Shown: one piece after another, positions 1,491 through 64,000 of the stretch
Position numbering within the stretch: the first letter of the stretch is position 1
How the letters are laid out: each line of letters starts with the position of its first letter
Assembly (NCBI GenBank): GCA_050261115.1
Contig: JBLNCY010000010.1
Span: 96,001-160,000, forward strand
Origin: Methanocella sp.
Lineage (GTDB): Archaea > Thermoproteota > Bathyarchaeia > Bathyarchaeales > Bathycorpusculaceae
Length of the DNA: 64,000 bases
Reading direction: 5' to 3'
Position numbers and translations under genes: made by a program
Notes under the pieces: model-generated
Database searches by the model: none
Told to the model about the DNA's origin: nothing
Seen by the model: the letters and a program-made list of their open reading frames with translations, nothing else

Positions 1491-2228
1491 TTGAAGTTGC
1501 AACTAAAAACCATAGATGTCGTCGTTATCGGTATTAGTGCAGCGTTATATGCTGTATTTGGGATTTTAACTGCGGGCTTTAGTTTTTTGGGCGTAGGATT
1601 TTTACCTGCTGTGGTAATTCCTGCCGTGTTCGCGGCGTTGTATGGGCCCTGGGTGGGCGGTTTTGGTGCGGCAATTGGTATTTTCATCCGGGATATGGTG
1701 GTTCATGGGAACGCGGGGTTGAGTCTCGTTGCGGGTGTTCCGCCTAACTTTATTGTTTTCTTCATTATTGGTTACTTTGCGTTTAGAAGCATTAGCCTCA
1801 AGCAGACCATGGCAGGTATAGTTGTTGCTGCAGTTGGTCTTTTGGTTCCAACTTTGATTTTTCTTCCCGACTTTTTGGCTTATACTGGCTTATCTCTTGA
1901 AGTTTTTATGTCTACTTTCGTGTTAACAGTTATCCTTAGTTTAGCAGTTATTGGTATAGTGTCTGTTAGGTATAAGGAGTGGCGAAGCTACGCTGTTGGA
2001 GCTGTATTTGGGCAAATTTTGGGTGCGGCACTGCTCTCAGTTATCGTAGTAGCGGTCAGCCCACTCTTTCTCACATACTTCACGGAGGCCCTGCCTGCAT
2101 GGGTCATAATTCCCTTGTTTGTCTGGACATTTGCAACTGAGGTGCCATTTGTGTTGCTTTTGGGACCGCCAATTATAAAAGCAGCAAACCGAGCATTTCC
2201 GTCGTTGAGGCGAAATCGACGCCAGTGA
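1491..2228 (+). CDS. ECF transporter S component (candidate pantoate/pantothenate specificity)
   Basis: Hydrophobic protein with AALYA and PAVFAALYGPWVGGFGAAIG S-component motifs; overlaps the pantoate kinase start. Confidence 0.7.
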   Translation: MKLQLKTIDVVVIGISAALYAVFGILTAGFSFLGVGFLPAVVIPAVFAALYGPWVGGFGAAIGIFIRDMVVHGNAGLSLVAGVPPNFIVFFIIGYFAFRSISLKQTMAGIVVAAVGLLVPTLIFLPDFLAYTGLSLEVFMSTFVLTVILSLAVIGIVSVRYKEWRSYAVGAVFGQILGAALLSVIVVAVSPLFLTYFTEALPAWVIIPLFVWTFATEVPFVLLLGPPIIKAANRAFPSLRRNRRQ

Positions 2229-3166
2229 ACCACGTGACTAAGACTGCTAAAGCATTTGCGCCAGGAGCAATATCTAGCTTCTTCCAAATTCATGACACCC
2301 AAAACGGTCAACCCATAAGCGACCTAACACAGATAGGTGCAATCGGCGGCGGCTTCGGCCTAGAAAAAGGCACCTACACGACCCTAACCGCAGAAGAAGC
2401 CAAAGAAAATAGCCTCACCGTAACCATAAATGGGCAACCAACAGAAGCCAAAACCACCAAACAAGTAATAGACACTCTTCTTGTAAAAACTGACCGAAAA
2501 TACGCAATCTTTGTTGAGCATCAGATTGAGGTTCCGATAGGTATGGGGTTTGGTACTAGCGCAGGCGGAGCCTTAACCACAGGGTTAGCCCTAAGAGAAG
2601 CAATTTCTTTGCCCCTAACCTATAACCAGATCGGGCAAGTGGCGCACGCGGCAGAAATCCAGTGCCTAACCGGGCTTGGCACCGTTAGCTCACTAAACTT
2701 TGGCGGTGGCCTCATATTGGTGACAAAGCCTGGTGCGCCGGGTGTTTGCCAGATTGACCGTATACCGATATCTCCAGAATACGTCGTTGTCGTGGGTTAC
2801 TACAAGTTGCTTATTCCCAAGAAGCCGGTGCTGACTTCTCCCCAGAAAAAGCAGGAAATTAACCAGTATGGCGGAGAAGCCCTCAAAGCCATACTAGAAA
2901 AGCCGAGCCTCAAGAATTTCTTGGAGCAATGCTGGGCATTCTCTGAAAACGCTGGGTTCTCAAACCAAAACATCCGCGCACTATACCGGGCGGCTAAGAA
3001 GGCAGGCGCTGTTGGCGCAGCCCAAAACATGATAGGTGAAGCCGTCCACGCCGTCTGCCACGAGGAAAACGCTGCCTCGGTAGCGGAAGCTTTTAAGCAG
3101 ATACTGCCTACAAATCAAGTATTGGTCAGCAGAATAGATTTTCAGGGCGCTAGGCTGATAAAATGA
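2225..3166 (+). CDS. pok: Pantoate kinase (GHMP kinase family)
   Basis: AFAPGAISSFF, PIGMGFGTSAGG, AHAAEI...TGLGTV and QNMIGE motifs. Confidence 0.85.
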   Translation: MNHVTKTAKAFAPGAISSFFQIHDTQNGQPISDLTQIGAIGGGFGLEKGTYTTLTAEEAKENSLTVTINGQPTEAKTTKQVIDTLLVKTDRKYAIFVEHQIEVPIGMGFGTSAGGALTTGLALREAISLPLTYNQIGQVAHAAEIQCLTGLGTVSSLNFGGGLILVTKPGAPGVCQIDRIPISPEYVVVVGYYKLLIPKKPVLTSPQKKQEINQYGGEALKAILEKPSLKNFLEQCWAFSENAGFSNQNIRALYRAAKKAGAVGAAQNMIGEAVHAVCHEENAASVAEAFKQILPTNQVLVSRIDFQGARLIK

Positions 3167-3642
3167 GGCAATTTCGAAAAGTCGCTGTCGGCGGAACCTT
3201 CGATCAACTTCATAAAGGTCACAAAGCTTTATTGAGTAAGGCTTTCGAAGTAGGCGATAGGGTTGCTATCGGTGTGACTTCGGATAGTTTTGTCTCAAAG
3301 CTGGATAAAAAGCATCGAACCGCATCTTTTGAAGACCGTAAACGGGAACTCAGAGCTTACCTTACTGAACAAGGCTTGATGGATAGAGCCGAGATTGTGC
3401 CACTAGATAACTCCTTTGGCTTAACCATTACCAGCCCGGATCTGGACGCCATTGTGGTAAGCCAAGAAACCGAACGCATTGCTAAGATCATTAACTGTAA
3501 ACGTGAAAACTCAGGTAAACCGCCTTTGCAGGTGATTGTGGTGACTATGGTTCCAGCAGAGAACCATTGCCCTATTTCTACAACACGAATCCGCCGCGGC
3601 GAAATTGACCGCAACGGACATTTGCTGCAGCGAACTGCTTAG
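3163..3642 (+). CDS. coaD: Phosphopantetheine adenylyltransferase, archaeal type
   Basis: VAVGGTFDQLHKGH, IVVSQET and ISTTRIRRGEID motifs. Confidence 0.9.
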   Translation: MRQFRKVAVGGTFDQLHKGHKALLSKAFEVGDRVAIGVTSDSFVSKLDKKHRTASFEDRKRELRAYLTEQGLMDRAEIVPLDNSFGLTITSPDLDAIVVSQETERIAKIINCKRENSGKPPLQVIVVTMVPAENHCPISTTRIRRGEIDRNGHLLQRTA

Positions 3643-4577
3643 AGTATTTCTCCTATAACGTTTATTGGTTTGGGGATAAGGGCTTTTAAGTCGTCGAGGC
3701 GTTCTGGGTCGATTGTGGCTAATACAACCGTTGCTGGCCCCGCAGACTTGTTTAGGTCTAATCCTTTTGGCTCGATGAGTTTTAGTTGTCTGCCAACGCC
3801 GTAAGCCATCATTTTTGCTTCACTGGCGATTCCAAAGCTGCCTACCGCAGCAATGTCATGCACGTACTTTCGCTGGTTAAGTTGTGCGACGTTTTTGAGG
3901 TCTGCGATTTCTCCATGTGCCTCCGCCGCGATGACCTCCATGCCTACTTTTGGTCTACCGATAGCCACGACCAAATCGTTTGGCATAGTTTTACCCAATC
4001 GGAGTTCATCCTCGTTGGCTAGACCCACTACCGTTAAACCTGCGCCTGTCTGCACTGTGGGAAAGTTGTCTTCGGTGTTTTCCATAAGCACTTGATTAGG
4101 GTCTAAACCGATGGTTCTTGCCTCCCGTTTAATACCTTCGCTGATTTCTTTCCCTGTGGGGTCGTTCTCTACGCCCAGTGTTAGCGATAGTAGCAGGGGG
4201 AAGGCGCCGGTTGCTATCACATCCATCAGGGCGACTCTTGCGAGAAATTTTCCTAAGAATTTTCCGTCCACCTTCACTTTGTCAAATTCTTTGGGTCCTA
4301 CTGCGCCGCTGGAGGTGGAACCTGTGACTATGGCGTGTCCTGTGGGCATTTTTAGGATTGATACGTCGCCGTGTCGGGTGTAGCTGATTTGGGCGGGTTT
4401 TACTTGGAAAGCGATGGGGCGTAGCATGGTGCCGACGTTTTCTATTAGGTGCAGGTATATGGTTAGGGCTTGGCGCATGACTTCTGAGCGGGTTAGGCTG
4501 TGCTTTTTTGCAAGTCTGTCTACGTCTTCTAGGACTTTGTCGGGTAAACGGACGTTTATAATATCCAAGAGATTCAC
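3639..4577 (-). CDS. N-terminal CopG-like RHH domain fused to a CblS/alpha-ribazole kinase-like (PurM/ThiL fold) domain
   Basis: INVRLP..LEDVD..AKK....RSEVMRQAL (RHH); GAVGPKEFD, ARVALMDV.ATGA.P, TEDNFPTVQTG.GLTVVG, G.PKVG.EV, VGS.GI..EA and KSAGPAT (CblS-like). Confidence 0.75.
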   Translation of the reverse strand: MNLLDIINVRLPDKVLEDVDRLAKKHSLTRSEVMRQALTIYLHLIENVGTMLRPIAFQVKPAQISYTRHGDVSILKMPTGHAIVTGSTSSGAVGPKEFDKVKVDGKFLGKFLARVALMDVIATGAFPLLLSLTLGVENDPTGKEISEGIKREARTIGLDPNQVLMENTEDNFPTVQTGAGLTVVGLANEDELRLGKTMPNDLVVAIGRPKVGMEVIAAEAHGEIADLKNVAQLNQRKYVHDIAAVGSFGIASEAKMMAYGVGRQLKLIEPKGLDLNKSAGPATVVLATIDPERLDDLKALIPKPINVIGEIL

Positions 4578-4578
4578 T

Positions 4579-4596
4579 GTGCTACATTTGTAGCAC
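4579..4596. promoter_or_regulatory. Perfect inverted repeat GTGCTACA-TT-TGTAGCAC between the TATA-like box and start of the RHH-fusion gene
   Basis: Read directly from the sequence; AATAAAT on the minus strand at about 4603-4609. Confidence 0.65.
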
Positions 4597-4665
4597 TAGG
4601 CGATTTATTGTTTACCAAAAACCCTCAAAAACAGCAGGCGACAAAGAAGGGTTCAACCCGTGGTT

Positions 4666-4702
4666 GACTCTATATATGGAGGGGGTAGGTCGGCAAAGCA
4701 AC
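4666..4702 (+). repeat. Dispersed intergenic repeat, copy 1 (most diverged)
   Basis: GACTCTATATATGGAGGGGGTAGGTCGGCAAAGCAAC. Confidence 0.5.
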
Positions 4703-4807: not shown

Positions 4808-6484
4808 TTAGCGGTAAAATGCTAAGAATCCGCCGAAGCGTGTCCAACTAAACCAGGACCAGAAGTGGTGGATGAAGCGGTAGACTATTTGTGGGACTGG
4901 CGATGGTGGCTCAGCGGGTATAGGCGTGGGTGTAGGTTGTTTTGTTGGTTCTGGTGTGGGTGACTTGGTTGGTGTTGGTTTGGTTGTGGGGGTTGGTGTA
5001 GCTGTTGGAGTTGGGGTTGGGGTGGCGGTTGGTGCTGGAGTGGGAGTAGCTGTTGGTGTTGGGGTTGGTGTTGCTGTAGGTTTAGGTGTGGGGGTTGCAG
5101 TCGGGGTTGGGGTTGGAGTTGCGGTCGGTGTGGGGGTCGGAGTTGCAGTTGGGGCTGGGGTTGGAGTCACGTTTGGGGTTGATGGCGCTTGGTATGCGTT
5201 AATGAAGTGTTGCCCCATGGTGTTTGGTGTGTATCCACTGGTTAGCATGGATTGCCCAACGTATACTCCGCCTAAGCCTGCTTCGCTTAGCCAGTAGTAG
5301 GCGCCGGCGCCGATGTTTAGGTCACGTTGTGCCAATAGTAGGTTCTTCCACCAAGTGTAATCGTTTTGCTTGTTTGGGGAAGATAACAAGCATGAGCCTT
5401 CTTCGTTGGCTACTAGTGGAGCGGTAACGCCCATGCTGTTTATTGCGGTTTGTAGCTGCGCTTTGATTCCTGCATAGTCTTTTGCCCAGTAGCTGCTAAG
5501 ATCGCTTGGTGCATAGTAGTAGAAGTGGGTTGTGTAGACTAGGTTGGTTGCTCCTGGGATTGCGTCGGCGATTTGTTTGCACCAGTTTAGTGTGTTGCCG
5601 TATCCGTTGGGGAACCAGCCCATGCGCCATTGCATCATGATCAAGTGGTTTGAGCCTGTGCCGCGGATGGCGTTGTACATTGTTTTTAGATAGGTCATGT
5701 AGCTTGATGGGATGGGGTCAACGTCGCTGCCGAGGTTTGGTTCGTTCCATGCTTCAAAGATTACGTTGGGGTAGTCTTTTAGAGTTGTTGCCATGTCTGC
5801 CCAGAACCACTGCCAAAAGCCTACTTCGTTGTTGCCATAGCCAGCGTCTTGGAGGAATCGGGTTGCTGATGCATCCCAGCCGGAAAGGGGCATGCCTTGC
5901 CAGCCAAAGTTGCTGGTTACGTATGGGTCGCGGTCGAAGCTGGCTGAGGAGGGGGTTAGCATATAGGGGACTATGTCGACGTAGATTCCGTATTTACCGG
6001 CTTCTTCGCAGAGCGTCTTCATGTAAGCTTTGATGCTTATGGGGGTGGTTTGACTGCTGTAGGATGAGCTTTCCTGTGATGGTGCAATGTTGTCTCTGTA
6101 CCACCAGCTTGGGAACATGAATACGCGTATGGCGTTTATTTTCCAGTCGTTTTTCATGACTTCAAAGGTGTCGCGCATTACTCCAGTGGGGTTGTAGTTC
6201 CATTGGACGCCCCAGTTGTCGCCGCCACCTTTGCCCCAGAGGATTAGGTCTGGCGCAAAGCCTGCAATGCCCATGCTCCGAAGGTAAACAGTGTTTCCAT
6301 CTGCATCGAGTATGTATGATCCTTGGGTATGAAGGGGTGATATCGTCGCTGCCTGCGCTGGCTGCACGGTGAGCACTGATAGCATGCTGATGACAAACAA
6401 TGCACTCATCGCAATCGCAAGGGGTTTTGCGGCCCTTTTGAAGTGTAAGGGGTGCAGTAGTCTTTCGATTTTTTTTGCGTTCAA
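4808..6484 (-). CDS. Secreted glycoside hydrolase family 5 (cellulase-like) with Pro/Thr linker and aromatic C-terminal tail
   Basis: Signal peptide ending AQA; [31 protein letters not shown] (acid/base), THFY and VANEEG (nucleophile) motifs. Confidence 0.85.
4922..5175 (-). repeat. Low-complexity PT/ATPTPT repeat encoding the GH5 linker
   Basis: Repeated ATPTPTPT units in translation; GGTGTTGGGGTT-type DNA repeats. Confidence 0.9.
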
Positions 6485-27490: not shown

Positions 27491-27777
27491 TTAAGTCCTA
27501 TTCGGTAGCAGCAAAGCTACTGTTGTAGCTGGGTGCGTCTTGGCGTTTTATGGTCTATGCTAAACGCTTGGCAACGTAAGCAGAGCGCGTTGGTTATCGG
27601 CATGTTGTTAGGCATATTTAATTATATGTCAAAGATCAACCTTTTGTCTGCCAACCACAGGAGCCGTTATAAAGCAGGCTGATATCAAGCTAAAGCAATC
27701 AAATGCGGATTTAAGCACAAACCAAAACTAAAGGTTTAAAGGCAACGCATATGCTTATTGTGCAAAAGGTGTAAAAT

Positions 27778-56388: not shown

Positions 56389-57243
56389 CTAAGGGGTGGC
56401 TGATGGTTTTTTCTGGGCGTCCTTTACTTCATAGACGATGTTACTGCCAGATTTCATGTTGATGTCGTCGATTTCTTCTATCATTCGGTTAACCATTCTT
56501 CCCACGACGAGCACAAATACGTTGAGTCCTCTTGAGGCGGCGATTGCAGCGGAATGGCTTATGCCGAATTCTATGTCGGGGCTGTAGTTGAGTTTGTTGA
56601 GTACGGCTCTGCCTACTGCGCCCATTACGCCGATCCTGTCAGGTTTGAATTTTTCAATGTAGCTTTTTATTTTTGTTAGGTCTGTGGCTCGGGAGCCGCC
56701 CTTTCGGATGCTAGGCACCTTAACGATGAGAATCCTACCATGTTTAACGTTCACCCTTCCCTGTATGTTCTTTAATCCCAGGTCTTCTCCTGCTTTGGCA
56801 TCGGTCAGCGCAGTGCCTTTTGCTTCTGCCTCCGGGCTGTCTATGGGTACAGTGTACATGATACCTTCTTTCATTATCAATCCGACTTCTTCGCCGGCTT
56901 TGACTGGTGCTGTGGCTATGGCGGGCCAGGCGTGTTCGATTTTTAGGTCTTTTTTGATTTCGTTAAGGTAGCTTTCGAGGCCTCGTATGTCTTCTTGGAG
57001 CTTCATTAGGCCTTTGGGGGTGACGCGGTAGTCGGCTCGTTCGCTGCCTGCTTCGATGTAGCCTTCGCGGGCGAGTTTTTTGAAGTACTTTGAGATGGCT
57101 TGGATGGTTATGCCTAGTTTGTCGCTGATGTCTTTTTGTTTTATGTGCGGTTGGTTGCGCATGATTTCGAATAGAATTTGGAATCTGGTGAATTCGCCCT
57201 TGTTTGATAGGAGTTTTTGTTGTTGCTTCGACAGTTTTTGCAA
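56389..57243 (-). CDS. Winged-helix (MarR-like) transcriptional regulator with C-terminal extension
   Basis: QILFEI...QKDISDKLGITIQAISKY.K.L..EG...YRVTPKG. Confidence 0.8.
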   Translation of the reverse strand: MQKLSKQQQKLLSNKGEFTRFQILFEIMRNQPHIKQKDISDKLGITIQAISKYFKKLAREGYIEAGSERADYRVTPKGLMKLQEDIRGLESYLNEIKKDLKIEHAWPAIATAPVKAGEEVGLIMKEGIMYTVPIDSPEAEAKGTALTDAKAGEDLGLKNIQGRVNVKHGRILIVKVPSIRKGGSRATDLTKIKSYIEKFKPDRIGVMGAVGRAVLNKLNYSPDIEFGISHSAAIAASRGLNVFVLVVGRMVNRMIEEIDDINMKSGSNIVYEVKDAQKKPSATP

Positions 57244-57302: not shown

Positions 57303-58127
57303 TTAGACATCATAGCCCCTAGCTGTAACCATCCTTCCATTAATCACACGGGTCATTGAGTTACCTACAACAATTGTGGTTACCATGTCGATTTCCTCAT
57401 TAAGCATGTCCTTCAACGTAGTTATGGTGTAGGTTTGTCCCTCACGGCCAGCTTGACGTACGATTCCCACTGGCGTGTCTGGCTTGATGTTTTTCATCAT
57501 GATCTGGTATGCGTTGACGAGGGGTTCTGTGCGGCCTTGACTCTGCGGATTATAGAGAACGATTGAGACGTCAGCTTGAGCGGCCAATTCTATTCGGCTC
57601 CGAATTTTTTCCCAAGGCGTCAAGAGATCGCTTAAACTAATCACTGCGAAGTCACTGATGAGGGGTGCGCCAAGAATCGCTGACGCGGCGGTGGCTGCCG
57701 TTACGCCCGGCACGACTTCGACCTCGACTGGTTCTTTGTCTTTTGCTGCAACCTCTAGGACTACGCCTGCCATTCCGTAGACGCCGGGGTCACCGCTTGA
57801 CACCATAACTACCGCTTTGCCCTCCTTGGCTTTATCTACTGCGGTTTGGGCGCGTTCCACTTCTTTGCCCATAGTTCCTGAAATTACTTCAGCGCCTTTT
57901 TTGATTAAGCACTCAATGAGTTTTATGTATGTGCCGTAACCTACGACGACGTCGGCGCACTCGATTTCAGTGCGGGCTTTGGGAGTCAAGTGTTCGCAGC
58001 TGCCGGGTCCGATACCGACGACGGCTACTCGCCCATGGCTACTGCTACTGTTACCCCGTTTAGCTTGGTCTTTTTTAGAATCAACTTTGCATTTGGTCCT
58101 GCTACTAGTAAGGCTGCTCGTTCGCAT
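57303..58127 (-). CDS. cbiH: Cobalt-precorrin-3B C17-methyltransferase
   Basis: VVGIGPG, SSGDPGVYGMA, ISLSDLLTPW, LYNP and IDMVT motifs; start ambiguous. Confidence 0.9.
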   Translation of the reverse strand: MRTSSLTSSRTKCKVDSKKDQAKRGNSSSSHGRVAVVGIGPGSCEHLTPKARTEIECADVVVGYGTYIKLIECLIKKGAEVISGTMGKEVERAQTAVDKAKEGKAVVMVSSGDPGVYGMAGVVLEVAAKDKEPVEVEVVPGVTAATAASAILGAPLISDFAVISLSDLLTPWEKIRSRIELAAQADVSIVLYNPQSQGRTEPLVNAYQIMMKNIKPDTPVGIVRQAGREGQTYTITTLKDMLNEEIDMVTTIVVGNSMTRVINGRMVTARGYDV

Positions 58128-59110
58128 ACTCCTCCAATTCCAATTTTTGATTGTACCATCGCCGAATCAGGCGAAAGGTCACTATATGTGACTGTGCGCA
58201 GTGCCTCCACACTTAGAAACTCTAGTGGGGCACCCAACTTGGAAACTGCATCTAGCATCGGTTGAGAATCCCGCTTAATGTCCACGGTTGCAAAGGCGTT
58301 GACGCGCGAGAGGGGCACATGAATTTTCTCTAGCGCGGTGTCGACGGCTTGTATGATGCTTTCTGCGCTGGATTCTTTGCGCGCCCCAAGCCCCACCACT
58401 AACTTGCGTGATTTCAGGATAGTGAAGGGTTTAGTAAATTTGGTGATAGTAAGCGGCTGGTCGGTGATAATGATACCCGCGTCAAAGCTGCCAAGAATGC
58501 TAAATGCCTCAGCGCCGTTTTGAGCGGTTCTTGTTTCGTATGCGGCAAGGGCGTCTGGAGGGACTTTTGCGTCGCCGACTAACACGACTACGATACGGTC
58601 GCCATTAACTATCGCCGAATTTAACGCCACAAGGCTGTCAGGGTTCTCGATTCTAAGATGTAGCCGTTTAGCTATCTCTTCTATGCTTTGTTTGCCCATA
58701 ACGTCTGAGGCGGTGGTTATGACGGGTATAGCGTTGATGCCAGCGGCGATGATGTGAGTCAGGTCGTTTGCGCCTCCCAGATGACCTGAGAGTAGACTGA
58801 TGACGAATTTGCCTTGGGCGTCCACGCCGACTATTGCCGGGTCAGTAAGTTTGCTCTCAAGCAGTGGCGCCACCGTCCGTATAGCAATACCCGTAGCCAT
58901 AACCGCCACTATCCCATCCACTTGACTGTAAATGTTTCCAAAAACTTCTGGAAGCTTCTTCTCTAAAGGTACCATGCCAGTTTGGCTATACTTCGGGGGC
59001 ACATAGACGGTTGCCTTAATCTGGGCTGACTCGAGGGCACGCCTAATTCTTTGGGCGGTCTCGACGCCTCGGCGAGTTAAGGCTACAACTGCTATGCCCC
59101 TTTCGTACAT
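58025..59110 (-). CDS. cbiG: Cobalt-precorrin-5A hydrolase
   Basis: MATGIAIR, DPA, LLSGHLGGAN, ITTASD and GVCERAA motifs. Confidence 0.92.
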   Translation of the reverse strand: MYERGIAVVALTRRGVETAQRIRRALESAQIKATVYVPPKYSQTGMVPLEKKLPEVFGNIYSQVDGIVAVMATGIAIRTVAPLLESKLTDPAIVGVDAQGKFVISLLSGHLGGANDLTHIIAAGINAIPVITTASDVMGKQSIEEIAKRLHLRIENPDSLVALNSAIVNGDRIVVVLVGDAKVPPDALAAYETRTAQNGAEAFSILGSFDAGIIITDQPLTITKFTKPFTILKSRKLVVGLGARKESSAESIIQAVDTALEKIHVPLSRVNAFATVDIKRDSQPMLDAVSKLGAPLEFLSVEALRTVTYSDLSPDSAMVQSKIGIGGVCERAALLVAGPNAKLILKKTKLNGVTVAVAMGE

Positions 59111-59112
59111 GG

Positions 59113-59877
59113 TTATTCTTCGCCTTTACGGAAGCCCGTTGTGAATTTTGGGTCATAGAGTTTGGAGTAGTCGTAGGCTTGGGGGTCAAGAACGCGACCG
59201 ACAAATATCAAGGCGGTTTCGGTTATGCCTGCAGCTTTGACTTTTCCTACAATGTCGCCTAGAGTGCCTTTGACTATTTTCTGTTCGGGCCAGGTGGCTT
59301 TGTAGACTACTTGGCAAGGTGTATCTTTGGGGTAGCCGCCGGCTTGGAGCTCCTCAACGACTTTCTTAATGTGCGGCGTTCCAAGAAATATGACCATGGT
59401 GGCTTGGTGTACGGCGAGTTTGCGAAGGCTTTCGGCTTCGGGGACGGGGGTTCGGCCCTCAGGTCGTGTGATGATTACTGTCTGGGATATGTTGGGTAGG
59501 GTTAATTCGCGGTTTAGTGCCGCGGCGCCTCCAAGGAGACAGCTGATACCTGGGATGCGGAAGTACTCAATTCCCTCTTTGTCTAGAGCCGTCATGACCT
59601 CTTGAATGGCACCATAAAAGCTCGGGTCGCCATCATGCAGCCGCACCACACGTTTGCCCGCTTTGACACCTTCGACCATGACCTTTAGCATTTCGGGCAA
59701 ACCCATCTTTGCGCTGTCGTAGAGTTCGGCGTCTGGTTTGCAGTACTTGAGGTATTCGGGGTTGAGTAGGCTGCCTGTGTAGACGACTACGTCGGCTTGC
59801 TCAAGCCATTTTTTGCCTTTCAAGGTGATGAGTTCAGGGTCGCCTGAGCCTGCACCGATAAAAACAACTTTATTCAA
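59113..59877 (-). CDS. cbiF: Cobalt-precorrin-4 C11-methyltransferase
   Basis: FIGAGSGDPELIT, RLHDGDPSFYGA, ELTLP.ISQ and SKLYD motifs; TTG start at 59877 overlapping the cbiL stop. Confidence 0.92.
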   Translation of the reverse strand: MNKVVFIGAGSGDPELITLKGKKWLEQADVVVYTGSLLNPEYLKYCKPDAELYDSAKMGLPEMLKVMVEGVKAGKRVVRLHDGDPSFYGAIQEVMTALDKEGIEYFRIPGISCLLGGAAALNRELTLPNISQTVIITRPEGRTPVPEAESLRKLAVHQATMVIFLGTPHIKKVVEELQAGGYPKDTPCQVVYKATWPEQKIVKGTLGDIVGKVKAAGITETALIFVGRVLDPQAYDYSKLYDPKFTTGFRKGEE

Positions 59878-60643
59878 TCTTTGACACACTTCCGTTCTGT
59901 TTCCAGTGAATAGGAACCTGACTTTTCTTAACAATAGCCACCGAGAAGTAATCCTCCTTAACATCCCAGCCCTCGACATCGCCAAGTTTACCGACCATAA
60001 CCTTCTCCTCCGCCAGAGTACAGCGTTTAACCAACGCTACAGTTGAATCTTTGGTGAAGCCTGCTCTGAGTAGGATGGGGATGTATTCTTTTATGCGGTA
60101 GGCGCATTTCATAAAGACAAGGTTCTCGGCGTGTTTGGCGACTTCTGCTAAGCGGTCTGCTTTGAGGTCGGCGGGTATGATGGTGACGACTTCGTCTTGC
60201 TCTGCGAGCGGCAGTTTGGATCTTGCGGCGACTGCGGTGAGGGAGGTTACGCCAGGGATGATTTCTAGCTCGATTTGGGGGTAGCTTTCTTTTAGGTATT
60301 CATAGAGGTAGAGGAATGTGCTGTACAGCATGGGGTCGCCAAGCGTGATGAAGGCGACGTCGCCTTGCTTGACTTTGGCGGTGACTATCACAGCGTTTTC
60401 TGCCCAGAGCTTTCGGTTGTTTAGGTCATCTCGGCTCATGGGAAAAACGAGCTCTAGGATTTCGGCGGGGTTTGTCCGTTCACCAAGTATGGGTTTAATC
60501 ATGCCTAGTGCCATACTGGGTCTGTTTGGGTGGGACTTGGGTACGCAGATAGTGTCCACTGATTTGAGGGTTTTTGCTGCTTTGAGGGTGAGTAATTCGG
60601 GGTCGCCTGGACCTACACCGATTCCGATAAAAACGCCGACCAA
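59870..60643 (-). CDS. cbiL: Cobalt-precorrin-2 C20-methyltransferase
   Basis: GVGPGDPELLTLKA, FPM, LGDPMLYSTF and YFS motifs. Confidence 0.92.
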   Translation of the reverse strand: MVGVFIGIGVGPGDPELLTLKAAKTLKSVDTICVPKSHPNRPSMALGMIKPILGERTNPAEILELVFPMSRDDLNNRKLWAENAVIVTAKVKQGDVAFITLGDPMLYSTFLYLYEYLKESYPQIELEIIPGVTSLTAVAARSKLPLAEQDEVVTIIPADLKADRLAEVAKHAENLVFMKCAYRIKEYIPILLRAGFTKDSTVALVKRCTLAEEKVMVGKLGDVEGWDVKEDYFSVAIVKKSQVPIHWKQNGSVSKIE

Positions 60644-60655
60644 ACATTTCTTCTC

Positions 60656-61261
60656 CTATAGTTTTGTTGCTGAAATCACCGTTATGGGGTTGCGGGCGGT
60701 CATCATGGTTCCGCTGGGGGTCTGTTTGCCTTTGGCGACTTGAATGCTTGCTATGTCGATGTCTTGGTAGCCTAAGGCTTTGAGCTCCGAGATTGCGGTT
60801 GCCGCCGTTTCGAGTTGGATTGCGTTTATGACGATTCTGCCGGTGGGTTTGAGTTTGTAGTGAGCTGTTTGGATGATGGTTCGGAGGTTTGCGCCTCCTC
60901 CGCCGATGAATATGGCGTCTGCGTTGGGCATGCTTATAAGCGCTTCAGGTGCACGCGCCTTTGAAACCGCCACCGTGTTTTCGACGCCGAATTTCTGCAC
61001 ATTACTCTTGGTTAGGGTGACTGCTGCTTCGTTTTCGTCTATGGCGTAGACTCTGCCTTTGCCTCCCACTTGTAGTGCCGCTTCAACGGTTAATCCTCCT
61101 GTGCCGCAGCCTACGTCAATGACTGTGTTCCCGTCGTTGAGTCGGGCTTTGGCTATGGTGACGACTCGGACTTCCTCTTTAGTGGGTCCCGGCACAGCCT
61201 CACCCTGATTGAAGCACTCGTCAGGTATTCCCGGTGTTTTGTATGCCCAGTTTCTAGCCAT
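60656..61261 (-). CDS. cbiT: Cobalt-precorrin-6B C15-methyltransferase (decarboxylating)
   Basis: PGIPDE.F, TKEEVR, DVGCGTG, FIGGG and ARNPI motifs. Confidence 0.92.
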   Translation of the reverse strand: MARNWAYKTPGIPDECFNQGEAVPGPTKEEVRVVTIAKARLNDGNTVIDVGCGTGGLTVEAALQVGGKGRVYAIDENEAAVTLTKSNVQKFGVENTVAVSKARAPEALISMPNADAIFIGGGGANLRTIIQTAHYKLKPTGRIVINAIQLETAATAISELKALGYQDIDIASIQVAKGKQTPSGTMMTARNPITVISATKL

Positions 61262-61934
61262 ATACTTCATGTCCCGTTGGTTGTTTGATTACCATAACTG
61301 AGAGGGCGCCGAAGGTTTGCCCCTGCAACCTCTCAAGAGACATCATGGTTACTCTTTCATTCTCCAAAGTCAGGTTCTCACAGACCACGACTTGGGTTTC
61401 TTTGTCTGCGTCGCGTTGAAGCAGAAACGCCGCAATATCCTTAGGCGCAAAGCCTCTCGCGTCAGGCAACAGCAGGATCGTGTTTCCGCGCTGGTATGCC
61501 TGGAGCAGTTTCTCTTTCTGGTCTTCTGTTACTTGCCCTTCATGGAATGTAAAGAGCCTAGCGCTTTCCCAGTTAAGGCGTAATCGGGCTGCGCATACCT
61601 GAATGGAACTGACACCAGGAACCACATTGATCTGTTCTGGGCTAAATAAGCCGCTTTCTTGCACAGTGTGCAGTAGCCCTGAGAATCCGGGGTCGCCTGT
61701 TGACAGCAATGCGACGGTTTTGCCAGCCTTTACGGCTTCTGATGTCGCTTTGAGGGTTTCGGCGAGGTTTTTAGCGGTTAAAACCATCTTTTCGCCTTTT
61801 ATGTCGCCCTCAAAGAGGCTAAGACTTCTCTGTGCACCGATAACCAGCTGTGCCTGCAGAACGCAATTTCTTGCAGCGGGGGTAATGTAGTCCGCCGAAC
61901 CCGGGCCAACGCCGACTATGTCAAGTTTTCCCAA
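61254..61934 (-). CDS. cbiE: Cobalt-precorrin-7 C5-methyltransferase
   Basis: VGVGPGS, STGDPGFSG, PGVSSIQ and CENLT motifs. Confidence 0.9.
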   Translation of the reverse strand: MGKLDIVGVGPGSADYITPAARNCVLQAQLVIGAQRSLSLFEGDIKGEKMVLTAKNLAETLKATSEAVKAGKTVALLSTGDPGFSGLLHTVQESGLFSPEQINVVPGVSSIQVCAARLRLNWESARLFTFHEGQVTEDQKEKLLQAYQRGNTILLLPDARGFAPKDIAAFLLQRDADKETQVVVCENLTLENERVTMMSLERLQGQTFGALSVMVIKQPTGHEVYG

Positions 61935-63016
61935 GGCCTATCCCTCTTTGCGTTTTGATCCATACCCAACACGGTGCCATCCATGGCAACGATAACAACA
62001 CTAAACTTCACTTTATGATCCACCCGATCGCTGACCTGCTTATGGACACGCTCGGCAATCAGGTCGTAGGTGGCTTCCACAAGATTTGCGTGGCGCAGGA
62101 TTTCGGTTGCTTCATCAGTGGTGTTTGCCTCAAGGAGTTCTTTGACGATGGTTTGTGTTGCTCCTGCTGCAGCCGCGTAGGCTGCTATGACCTCATTTCG
62201 AGCGTCACCCATTTTGTGGTGGGTGTTGAAGAGCCTCGCGGCGAGCTTGACAAGTTTCCCCGAGTGACCGATGAAGATAATTTCTTTGACTCCTTTTTCG
62301 GCGGCTTTGTCAAGCATGTAGCCGACGAAGTCGCAGGTCTGCACTATCGCATCCTCTGGAGCGCTGAATTTCTCTTTGGCTATGCGTTCACCGATGCTGC
62401 CTGGCACAAAAATCAGCCGCTTGTACCCTCTTGCGAGGGCGACGTCGATTTGGGGCACCATGGATCTTCGGCATGCCTCCACCGAGAGGGGCTTAACGAC
62501 GCCTGTGGTGCCTAGGATGGATATGCCGCCTTTGATGCCCAATTTAGCGTTAGTGGTTTTCTTAGCTATATTCGCGCCTTCCGGTGCGCTTATGGTTACT
62601 ACGGCGCCTTTTCCTTGGGGGAGAACTTCTTTGACGGCTTCTGTTATCATGGCTCGTGGAACTGGGTTGATGGCGCCTTCGCCAATCGGAACCTGCAAAC
62701 CCGCCTTGGTGACGACGCCTATGCCTTCCCCGTTTCGGATGGTGATTTTGCCGTCGTCGGTTAGTTTAACGGTTGCTACTATGTCCATTTTATCGGTGGC
62801 ATCGATGTCTTGACCTGCGTCCTTTACGGCGACGGCCAGGGCGGTGTCAGCGGTGATTCTTTTGGTGGTTTTTATGGGTAGCTCGAATCTGATGCCGATG
62901 GGGGTTGGGATAACGACGCGGTTAACCTCTCCACTCAATAATACCGTTGCTGCGGCTTTGGCTGCTGCGGCCGCCGTGGCACCCGTTGATAGACCGAACT
63001 TCAAAAACCGCGCCAA
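61916..63016 (-). CDS. cbiD: Cobalt-precorrin-5B C1-methyltransferase
   Basis: STGATAAAAAKA, KDAG, AINPVPR, GGISILGTTG and GKLVKLA...THH motifs. Confidence 0.95.
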   Translation of the reverse strand: MARFLKFGLSTGATAAAAAKAAATVLLSGEVNRVVIPTPIGIRFELPIKTTKRITADTALAVAVKDAGQDIDATDKMDIVATVKLTDDGKITIRNGEGIGVVTKAGLQVPIGEGAINPVPRAMITEAVKEVLPQGKGAVVTISAPEGANIAKKTTNAKLGIKGGISILGTTGVVKPLSVEACRRSMVPQIDVALARGYKRLIFVPGSIGERIAKEKFSAPEDAIVQTCDFVGYMLDKAAEKGVKEIIFIGHSGKLVKLAARLFNTHHKMGDARNEVIAAYAAAAGATQTIVKELLEANTTDEATEILRHANLVEATYDLIAERVHKQVSDRVDHKVKFSVVIVAMDGTVLGMDQNAKRDRPWENLT

Positions 63017-63030
63017 ACCCTTCTTCTCCT

Positions 63031-64000
63031 TTAACCGTAGAGTTTTCCTTCCGCTTTAGTAAGTAACGCGTTGAAGATCGCGACTGCGATGGTGCTGCCG
63101 CCTTTGCGGCCACGCGTAACGATATAGGGCACTGGTAGGTTGGCGATGGTATCTTTGGATTCGGCGGCGCCTACAAACCCCACTGGAACCGCCACAATCA
63201 GAGCCGGCTTAACTTTTCCTTCCCTGATTTGGGCTGCAAGTTCAAGGGCTGCTGTTGGAGCGTTACCGATTAGCACGATGCCGCCGTCTAAGCCATCCTC
63301 TATGGCTAACCTCATAGCTGCTGCGGACCGGGTAAGGTCCTCTTTTCTGGCGAGCTCCATTACGCGGCAGTCATTCATATAGGTCTGAACTTGAGTGCCG
63401 AACTTTTTGAGGCGCGCAGCGTTAATGCCTGCTTTAATCATTTTGACGTCGCTTACAACTTTGGCGCCTGCTTTAATTGCGGCTACACCCGCTTGGACCG
63501 CGTTTGGGCTAATAACAATGAGCTTTGCAAACTCGGGGTCAGCTGTTGTGTGGACAACCCGCTCCACAATGGCTATGTCGTCTGGCGGGGATTTTGCTAA
63601 TTCTTCTCCTATGGCTTCTCGGATAAGCAACATGGACTTATCGACGATTTTTCCCGCTTCAGGAACTGAGTATGCGTCGAGAATTTCGCTGTCTTTTTTT
63701 AGTTCGCAGCCTAACGCTTTGAGTGCTTTCTCTTCGAGGATGTCTGCGATGCGTTCATCGCTGCCTAAGGGTTCGCCATAGAGGAGTTCCACGCCTTTGG
63801 ATTTTAGCTGGGGCTCTTTTTCTTTAACTCCGATGAGTCCAGGGATGTCCTGTGTTGTATGGACTCCTGGCGCTAGGAAGGCTGGAACCAAAACAATCTT
63901 TGAAACTCCGCTTGTTGCTATGCTGTCGATGGCTTCCTCGACGGTTGGGGTGTCCCGTATCATAAATGCAATCGAAACCGTTTGGAATTTTTTTCTAAGG
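63031..64000 (-). CDS. cbiC: CbiX cobaltochelatase-CbiC precorrin-8X methylmutase fusion (5' end outside the window)
   Basis: N part AFM...P.VEEAI...VPAFLAPGVHTTQDIP...EPLG.D (CbiX); C part RVVHTTAD, IGNAPTA, PVGFVGAAESK and GRKGGS (CbiC). Confidence 0.88.
   Translation of the reverse strand, partial: LRKKFQTVSIAFMIRDTPTVEEAIDSIATSGVSKIVLVPAFLAPGVHTTQDIPGLIGVKEKEPQLKSKGVELLYGEPLGSDERIADILEEKALKALGCELKKDSEILDAYSVPEAGKIVDKSMLLIREAIGEELAKSPPDDIAIVERVVHTTADPEFAKLIVISPNAVQAGVAAIKAGAKVVSDVKMIKAGINAARLKKFGTQVQTYMNDCRVMELARKEDLTRSAAAMRLAIEDGLDGGIVLIGNAPTAALELAAQIREGKVKPALIVAVPVGFVGAAESKDTIANLPVPYIVTRGRKGGSTIAVAIFNALLTKAEGKLYG

Follow-up and report, generated by a model that had tools for sequence, protein, structure and literature searches.

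What is a DNA-binding domain doing on the same archaeal protein as a domain that resembles the alpha-ribazole kinase CblS? This question is raised by a gene on the reverse strand of a 64,000-nucleotide stretch of contig JBLNCY010000010.1 (the whole stretch is called the window below), found at positions 3639..4577 in the list of open reading frames, with its stop codon at 3639-3641. The protein combines a ribbon-helix-helix (RHH) domain with a CblS-like domain, and the comparisons presented here indicate that it is probably a transcription factor that senses a ligand, regulates its own gene and controls a regulon for precursor salvage. As its ligand, a compound from the salvage of the cobamide lower ligand is tentatively proposed.

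The domain layout had been suggested originally from the letters of the window alone, and multiple analyses now confirm it. Residues 7-42 (4452..4559, reverse strand) match the Pfam model RHH_1 with 30.2 bits (cut-off 20.5), and residues 73-158 match the PurM-type AIRS N-domain with 29.1 bits (cut-off 24), as part of a PurM-fold, CblS-like domain that covers residues ~64-312 (3642..4388, reverse strand) and is the putative sensor. An AlphaFold (AF2) model of the fusion protein, made from 38 sequences, has a mean pLDDT (predicted local distance difference test) of 93.9. In Foldseek, the body of the protein superposes on SelD, PurL, PurM, ThiL and HypE with E-values of 1e-14 to 1e-10, and no CblS structure was among the matches listed. 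The assignment to the CblS type was also supported by a family hidden Markov model (HMM), described below. An NCBIfam scan of the protein gave nothing above cut-off and only weak RHH and ThiL similarities; the weak match to NikR (E 0.085) covers the RHH part only, and a profile search of PDB sequences gave marginal PurM and ThiL matches only. The Asn and Arg of the RHH beta-strand (I-N-V-R-L-P) are invariant in all nine fusions of distant lineages that were compared.

The start of the protein needs a small correction. Counted from the GTG at 4577 it has 312 amino acids, and counted from the TTG at 4568 it has 309. The TTG at 4566-4568 is more likely to be the true start, because most orthologues are 309 amino acids long and have a Shine-Dalgarno-like GTG or GGTG before their ATG or TTG. 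At least 120 database relatives share at least 81% identity with the protein; among the best 120, those with a name are Bathyarchaeia and most have the length of 309. In a comparison of 20 orthologous 5' ends, an ATG, TTG or GTG is present at the position of the window's TTG, and the GTG or GGTG lies 7-10 nt ahead of the start codons. The GTG at 4575-4577 is likelier to be part of the ribosome-binding region, which together with the probable start occupies 4566..4577 on the reverse strand.

The C-terminal domain differs from its stand-alone relatives at a position that is expected to matter for catalysis. It had been noticed that the ACDS motif reads GSTS in the window protein, with loss of the Asp. 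This is correct (G86-S-T-S89, codons at 4311..4322 on the reverse strand, with Thr88 at the position of the 'CDS' Asp; the stand-alone consensus is LVIACDSxGGIG), and the loss is systematic. In total, 439 stored family proteins, many of them closely related, were compared, of which 163 have an RHH-like N-terminus and 276 do not. Asp is found at this column in 0 of the 163 fused proteins (Thr in 146, Ile in 12 and Ser in 5) versus 260 of the 276 unfused proteins, the others being nine gapped fragments and seven proteins with another residue. At a second acidic column, the Glu of the LME motif, 138 fused proteins have Asp, 23 have Lys and two have Glu. A profile alignment pairs the 'CDS' Asp with the Asp in the 'ADT' motif of ThiL, and the LME Glu with the Asp in 'LSDI' of the same protein; both columns are taken by us to be metal or ATP ligands of the PurM superfamily. 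Neither is named in the available part of the ThiL paper (PMC6416309).

The fused and unfused proteins are also separated in a quick unrooted maximum-likelihood tree of 53 domains, in which 13 fused and 40 unfused domains lie on opposite sides of one branch (Shimodaira-Hasegawa-like approximate likelihood ratio test, SH-aLRT, 96). This split would fit a fusion that arose only once. The fusion protein is probably not an enzyme. A bifunctional enzyme-regulator comparable to the archaeal regulator RbkR, which would still phosphorylate its substrate despite the exchange of Asp for Thr and couple catalysis to DNA binding, is very unlikely. Most other conserved residues of the family are kept, for example D71, D99, E169, N171 and T177, and residual nucleotide binding or catalysis may therefore persist; on the other hand, the 'CDS' Asp is replaced without exception, the second acidic residue has become Lys in part of the fused proteins, and a catalytic-looking paralogue coexists with the fusion in ~5 of the 19 fusion-bearing genomes of the genus and in some other lineages, often at an adjacent position.

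The kinship of the C-terminal domain with CblS is supported because product names, primer mapping and gene context all agree; the assignment was made on these three and not against an experimentally characterised CblS sequence. An exhaustive search of 1.84 billion representatives (E <=0.001) resulted in 481 matches, mostly stand-alone proteins of ~250 amino acids that align to residues 68-311. One of them (P0220, E 4e-29) has the product name alpha-ribazole kinase at NCBI and UniRef, and another relative is named 'putative alpha-ribazole ...'. With an HMM of the stand-alone family, the window domain reaches 263 bits and proteins identified as CblS by name or placement reach 250-270 bits; this model was built from matches to the window domain itself and is hence biased toward it. 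In Loigolactobacillus (Lactobacillaceae), a family member (X) lies between hemL and cobU in a hemACBL-X-cobU-cobS-cobC operon, a place where the lower-ligand-activating enzyme is expected. The quantitative PCR primers for L. coryniformis cblS, given in the available part of their source (PMC6167548), map inside gene X of related lactobacilli with 2-6 mismatches and with the published spacing of 148 bp.

Comparable gene contexts are found outside the lactobacilli. One Alicyclobacillus protein carries the family domain joined to a precorrin-2 dehydrogenase. In G079, an archaeal genome of the same phylum, a gene for the S-component of an energy-coupling factor transporter (ECF-S) and a family member adjoin a cobamide cluster with cobY-like, cobS, CbiZ/CobZ (above the cut-off of the alpha-ribazole phosphatase model), cbiB and cobD-type aminotransferase genes, and in two further genomes an ECF-S and kinase pair adjoins BtuCD/F-like ABC transporter genes. 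These contexts, the HMM score and the named match bear out the relation to CblS that had been read from the sequence. The CblS of Firmicutes, which is accompanied by the transporter CblT, is of the same ~250-amino-acid PurM-fold family as the window domain, and the cblT-cblS pairing resembles that of the catalytic archaeal paralogues with an ECF-S component. The window protein differs in that it has gained an RHH domain, has lost the invariant 'CDS' Asp and falls on a separate side of the split from all unfused members.

If the protein regulates transcription, it should have a binding site, and a candidate lies in its own promoter. The perfect palindrome that had been seen between the TATA box and the start codon is real and is located at 4579..4596, ~10 nt upstream of the TTG start. 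It has the form 8-N2-8 and contains two GTnnnAC half-sites 4 nt apart. The TATA-like box AATAAAT (4603..4609, reverse strand) lies ~7-10 nt upstream of this predicted operator, which would cover the transcription start expected ~26 nt after the TATA box. The palindrome is the sole match in the window at up to three mismatches and the sole match in the 2.15-Mb genome at up to two. Perfect 8-N2-8 palindromes are not rare (39 in the genome versus ~33 expected), so the significance of the operator comes from its conservation and not from the palindrome count.

When 20 orthologous promoters are aligned on their TATA-like box, the pair of GTnnnAC half-sites is found in the same place in all of them and the flanks and inner bases vary. 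In a blind count of the invariant positions, all eight are present in 12 of the 20 promoters and at least seven in 18, and none of 20 control windows from inside the genes reaches seven; in all operator counts, including those below, at most 1 of 20 control windows was positive. A site of the same type is therefore kept in most orthologous promoters. The spacer between the half-sites is 4 nt in most and 3 nt in four of these promoters, and an ATAA(A/G) box occurs 39-48 nt ahead of the start codon in 19 of the 20. The centres of the half-sites are 11 bp apart, one helical turn, which would suit two RHH dimers bound to the same side of the double helix. Four metatranscriptome runs contained identical contigs over parts of the gene with a depth of 2-7, one of which (4354-4681) spans the promoter; these contigs give neither strand nor start, and carry-over of DNA is possible. 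An Rfam scan of the four operator loci matched only a tRNA. A scan for sigma-70 promoters and terminators, with models that are not applicable to archaea, remained at the level of shuffled sequence.

The operator is not limited to the regulator gene. A symmetrised matrix was made from 40 sites and used to scan the own genome, with the reversed genome as a control. The four best-scoring matches are exactly the four loci of the predicted regulon: C40:15439 (score 27.2), upstream of a gene for a 193-amino-acid membrane protein; C41:5393 (24.3), upstream of a Tdh-like zinc-dependent alcohol dehydrogenase (ADH) gene and a TrpD paralogue; C10:100579 (20.2; window position 4579), upstream of the regulator gene itself; and C61:14027 (18.5), upstream of an operon of an ECF-S gene and a CblS-like kinase gene. 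The best control score was 19.3, followed by 14.5. The strict operator pattern occurs 12 times in the own genome, and on the contig of the window only the regulator's own site reaches a matrix score of at least 11. The operators of the three target loci lie farther out, with their ends 12 nt upstream of the TATA box and past the TFB-recognition element (BRE).

The gene for the 193-amino-acid membrane protein is present in 19 of the 24 genomes of the genus, and in 20 of 20 promoters of this gene all eight invariant positions are found, always 12 nt before a TTTTAT box. The protein matched no Pfam or NCBIfam family. Its nearest language-model clusters are QueT and ECF-S, which serve as leads only; its structural model has a pLDDT of 77, and its best 14 structural matches are ECF S-components with weak E-values of 0.02-1. 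It is therefore treated here as a putative ECF-S-like transporter. In most of the 20 orthologous promoters (L083-L102; G000 contig C40:15470-15516), a second conserved block was observed 12-30 nt downstream of TTTTAT, in the likely 5' leader; it has no Rfam match.

The ECF-S and kinase operon consists of an ECF-S gene (PF12822, 45 bits), followed by a gene for a paralogue of the fusion domain with 43% identity. This paralogue has the ACDS motif and is catalytic-looking. In seven of eight genomes, the promoter of the operon has a pair of half-sites 12 nt ahead of TTTTAT, of which one is canonical and the other a variant; in the eighth (G035), neither the fusion gene nor the operator at this promoter was found. 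The regulator gene and the ECF-S and kinase operon are arranged divergently in G008 and G040, with a single operator in an intergenic region of ~80 nt, and G099, G210, G254 and G379 have the same divergent layout by coordinates. Also divergent from this operon, at C61:14124-15896 of the own genome G000 (L108:5125-6897), is a gene for a thiamine pyrophosphate enzyme similar to pyruvate oxidase and acetolactate synthase with an N-terminal rubredoxin-like Cys motif; the intergenic region and its operator are common to both. The third target, the ADH operon, contains the Tdh-like zinc dehydrogenase and the TrpD paralogue, and the canonical trpD is located elsewhere in the genome. Its promoter has an intact operator in three of three genomes with the fusion and a decayed one in two of two in which the fusion was not found.

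The loss of the operator along with the fusion bears on whether the fusion protein is indeed the factor that binds there. That the operator belongs to another factor, with an unrelated role for the fusion such as that of an antitoxin-like RHH protein or a scaffold, is extremely improbable. An operator without a detected fusion gene is present in two genomes (G004 and G019), and the RHH domain also has weak matches to antitoxin models; however, G004 is only 71% complete (G019 is 98% complete), and no toxin partner gene adjoins the fusion gene at the window locus. In addition, the operator is found in the fusion's own promoter in the large majority of orthologues and beside fusions of low identity (see below), and it is decayed at the ADH promoters and absent in G035 where the fusion is missing.

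The fusion is found well outside the genus. Within the sampled genomes of the phylum, the fusion or the paralogue was matched in 25 of 401, and the fusion itself in 19 of the 24 genomes of the genus. The cluster of distant fusions has members named Methylarchaceae, Wukongarchaeota (Asgard), Methanophagales, Methanomethylicota, Methanohalarchaeum and Methanonatronarchaeum and, judged from these names, the fusion is pan-archaeal, occurring from Bathyarchaeia to Asgard archaea and methanogens. One of the carriers, Methanonatronarchaeum thermophilum, is a cultivated isolate, and therefore experiments should be feasible. Two distant fusions with only 39% (G375) and 32% (G206) identity adjoin an ECF-S gene and a gene for a PfkB-family kinase, and the same type of operator lies 12-13 nt before a TATA-like box. 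These clusters of RHH fusion, ECF-S and ribokinase-like PfkB genes are located at 4366-6787 of L139 (G375) and 1813-3793 of L140 (G206). In these clusters, the CblS-like kinase may have been replaced by the non-orthologous PfkB kinase.

The arrangement of these genes suggests how the regulon could work. The N-terminal RHH domain would bind the operator of two GTnnnAC half-sites, probably as a dimer of dimers joined through the PurM-fold domain, and the CblS homologue without its active-site Asp would most likely serve as a sensor rather than as an enzyme. At its own promoter, autorepression is expected because the operator lies over the expected transcription start, where its occupancy would block the recruitment of the polymerase. 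The predicted targets are the gene of the 193-amino-acid ECF-S-like transporter, the operon of ECF-S and catalytic CblS-like kinase and, in some genomes, the operon of dehydrogenase and TrpD paralogue. Archaeal factors that bind upstream of TATA/BRE often activate. Since the target operators lie upstream of the TATA box, binding could lead either to activation or to steric repression of TFB/TBP. The protein had been predicted to be an autoregulated repressor: autoregulation is the natural reading of a conserved operator in the gene's own promoter, but 'repressor' may be half of the story.

The effector is most likely a substrate or product of the paralogous kinase, that is, alpha-ribazole, its phosphate or a related riboside of the cobamide lower ligand. 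Alpha-ribazole or its phosphate is the leading candidate because of the gene contexts of the family, and it is put forward tentatively on homology and context. An alternative is that the regulator and the regulon are the same and the effector is not related to cobamides, being another imported vitamin precursor or riboside of the thiamine, queuosine/archaeosine or nicotinamide type. The domain has curated-model similarities only in the form of weak superfamily-level matches to ThiL and others, the GenBank annotation of one member calls it 'thiamine monophosphate kinase-like', the nearest named clusters of the 193-amino-acid transporter are QueT and generic ECF-S (leads only), the partner kinase in two lineages is ribokinase-like, and cbi and cob genes have no operator. 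This alternative is nevertheless considered unlikely, as unfused members are encoded within or beside genes for the cobamide nucleotide loop, for alpha-ribazole phosphatase and for Btu-like transporters, in both bacteria and archaea, one member is the Alicyclobacillus fusion to precorrin-2 dehydrogenase, and no thiamine or queuosine genes were present in any neighbourhood examined.

In addition to the conserved residues that the fusion keeps and the two genomes with an operator and no fusion, several observations weigh against the proposed ligand-sensing regulator and its regulon. A matrix scan of the own genome found no operator near cbi or cob genes, where sites had been thought possible. 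Salvage is not obligatory, since one CobT-like and two CobS genes are present in the genome. The ECF-S and kinase operon is much rarer in the genus than the fusion: ~5 genomes have both, and the S-component query matched 7 of 24 genomes, two of them only near the E-value limit. The operator of this operon in the own genome also scores below the best control match. The substrate of the 193-amino-acid transporter is not deducible from its matches, the Tdh-like ADH and the TrpD paralogue have no evident cobamide link, and the distant fusions pair with a PfkB kinase and not with a CblS-like one. Finally, the sensor clade does not branch from within the kinases but is the sister group of all of them, and therefore its specificity may differ. 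The two CobS genes are located at C8:20753-21523 and C8:48668-50162 of G000 (L104-L106), and one of them adjoins a weak archaeal-type CobT match (27.5 bits).

Taken at its most specific, the alpha-ribazole reading would make the fusion the first protein sensor of a cobamide lower-ligand riboside, pan-archaeal and independent of riboswitches. The sensor would have arisen a single time, when a CblS kinase lost the catalytic Asp and was fused to an RHH domain, and it would repress itself and activate ECF-S-type uptake and phosphorylation of the riboside. In this full form the reading is possible but doubtful. If true, Bathyarchaeia, Asgard archaea, ANME-1 and methyl-reducing methanogens would tune the salvage of the B12 lower ligand via one conserved operator.

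To our knowledge, archaeal B12 genes are not under riboswitch control, and few protein-based vitamin regulators are known in archaea, namely RbkR and ThiR. ThiR, the archaeal thiamine regulator, presumably consists of a DNA-binding domain and a catalytically inactive copy of ThiN as a sensor, and it would be the closest in logic to the window fusion; the DNA-binding fold, the sensor fold and the vitamin differ. RbkR, the archaeal riboflavin kinase and regulator, likewise combines a DNA-binding domain with an enzyme domain of the regulated vitamin pathway, according to the available part of its description, and comparative genomics allows the reconstruction of its regulon, which comprises its own gene, vitamin transporters and genes of the pathway (PMC5397151). 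The RbkR-like build that had been proposed for the window protein, a DNA-binding domain joined to an enzyme-derived domain, is indeed present, and here too the shared operator precedes the regulator gene, transporter genes and pathway genes, with the catalytic paralogue among the predicted targets. The two differ in that RbkR has a winged helix and has kept its kinase activity, whereas the window fusion has an RHH domain, an enzyme domain that looks inactivated and another pathway. The same source states that archaea do not use the flavin mononucleotide riboswitch that controls riboflavin genes in many bacteria (PMC5397151). Regulators of the NikR/MetJ type also have an N-terminal RHH domain that binds repeated half-sites, bind their effector with the C-terminal part and control their own or transport genes; the sensor in the window protein is a two-domain PurM fold of ~250 amino acids and not an ACT-like metal-binding domain, and the half-site and spacing differ as well.

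A literature search, which did not include many subscription papers, found RbkR and RHH cell-cycle regulators and nothing on the fusion or on an archaeal protein sensor of alpha-ribazole. The original statement that no description of the fusion was known holds in so far as no publication was found; the architecture itself is already present in a GenBank product name (OUJ18794.1, 'CopG/MetJ family transcription regulator fused to thiamine monophosphate kinase-like ...'). Apparently new are the operator and its regulon, the loss of the Asp throughout the fused forms and the kinship with CblS. The family would be the third archaeal example of enzyme-turned-sensor logic after RbkR and ThiR, and it brings a clean, testable operator together with a small regulon whose ECF-S-type transporters and kinases are uncharacterised. 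It would also be a natural example in which loss of one catalytic residue accompanies the switch from kinase to sensor. CblT/CblS-like lower-ligand salvage has so far been described in Firmicutes, as far as the available part of the source shows (PMC6461909), and the present data point to such salvage in archaea.

Multiple other features of the window were part of the analysis. The cbi operon that had been pointed out in the same window is present (57303-63963), 52 kb from the regulator; it has no operator, and nothing links the regulator to it. Directly beside it (56389-57243, reverse strand) is a gene for a protein with a winged helix (HTH_24/MarR_2) and a DUF7839 domain, a candidate regulator of corrin-ring synthesis that is distinct from the RHH fusion. 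A second palindrome at 27515-27530 had been proposed as a weaker site of the same type. The element exists as a perfect 6-N4-6 palindrome that is followed after 25 nt by a GDSL-lipase gene and preceded by an ATAAAA box at a distance of 15 nt, a layout like that of the regulator promoter, but a function as an operator is unsupported: the invariant outer GT/AC are missing, the family-matrix score is below 11, and the CTAC-N4-GTAG core occurs 12 times in the genome versus 49 times in the reversed-genome control, which is chance level. The GDSL-lipase gene belongs to a multi-copy family and has at most 51% identity to its best relative; there were no orthologous promoters to compare.

The genes that converge on the regulator form an apparent operon on the forward strand. 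It starts with an ECF-S-like gene (1491-2228; weak PF12822 and riboflavin-S matches) and a gene for a pantoate-kinase-like GHMP kinase (2225-3166), followed by an archaeal phosphopantetheine adenylyltransferase (PPAT) gene (3163-3642), the stop of which overlaps the regulator stop by 4 nt. The gene content suggests the uptake of a coenzyme A precursor. A regulatory link from the fusion to these genes (1491-3642) was considered and rejected, as no operator is present there and the relation is one of mere adjacency. Immediately upstream of the regulator promoter region, on the reverse strand (4808-6484), lies a gene for a GH5 cellulase-like protein with a long Pro-Thr-rich repeat linker and a C-terminal hydrophobic tail.

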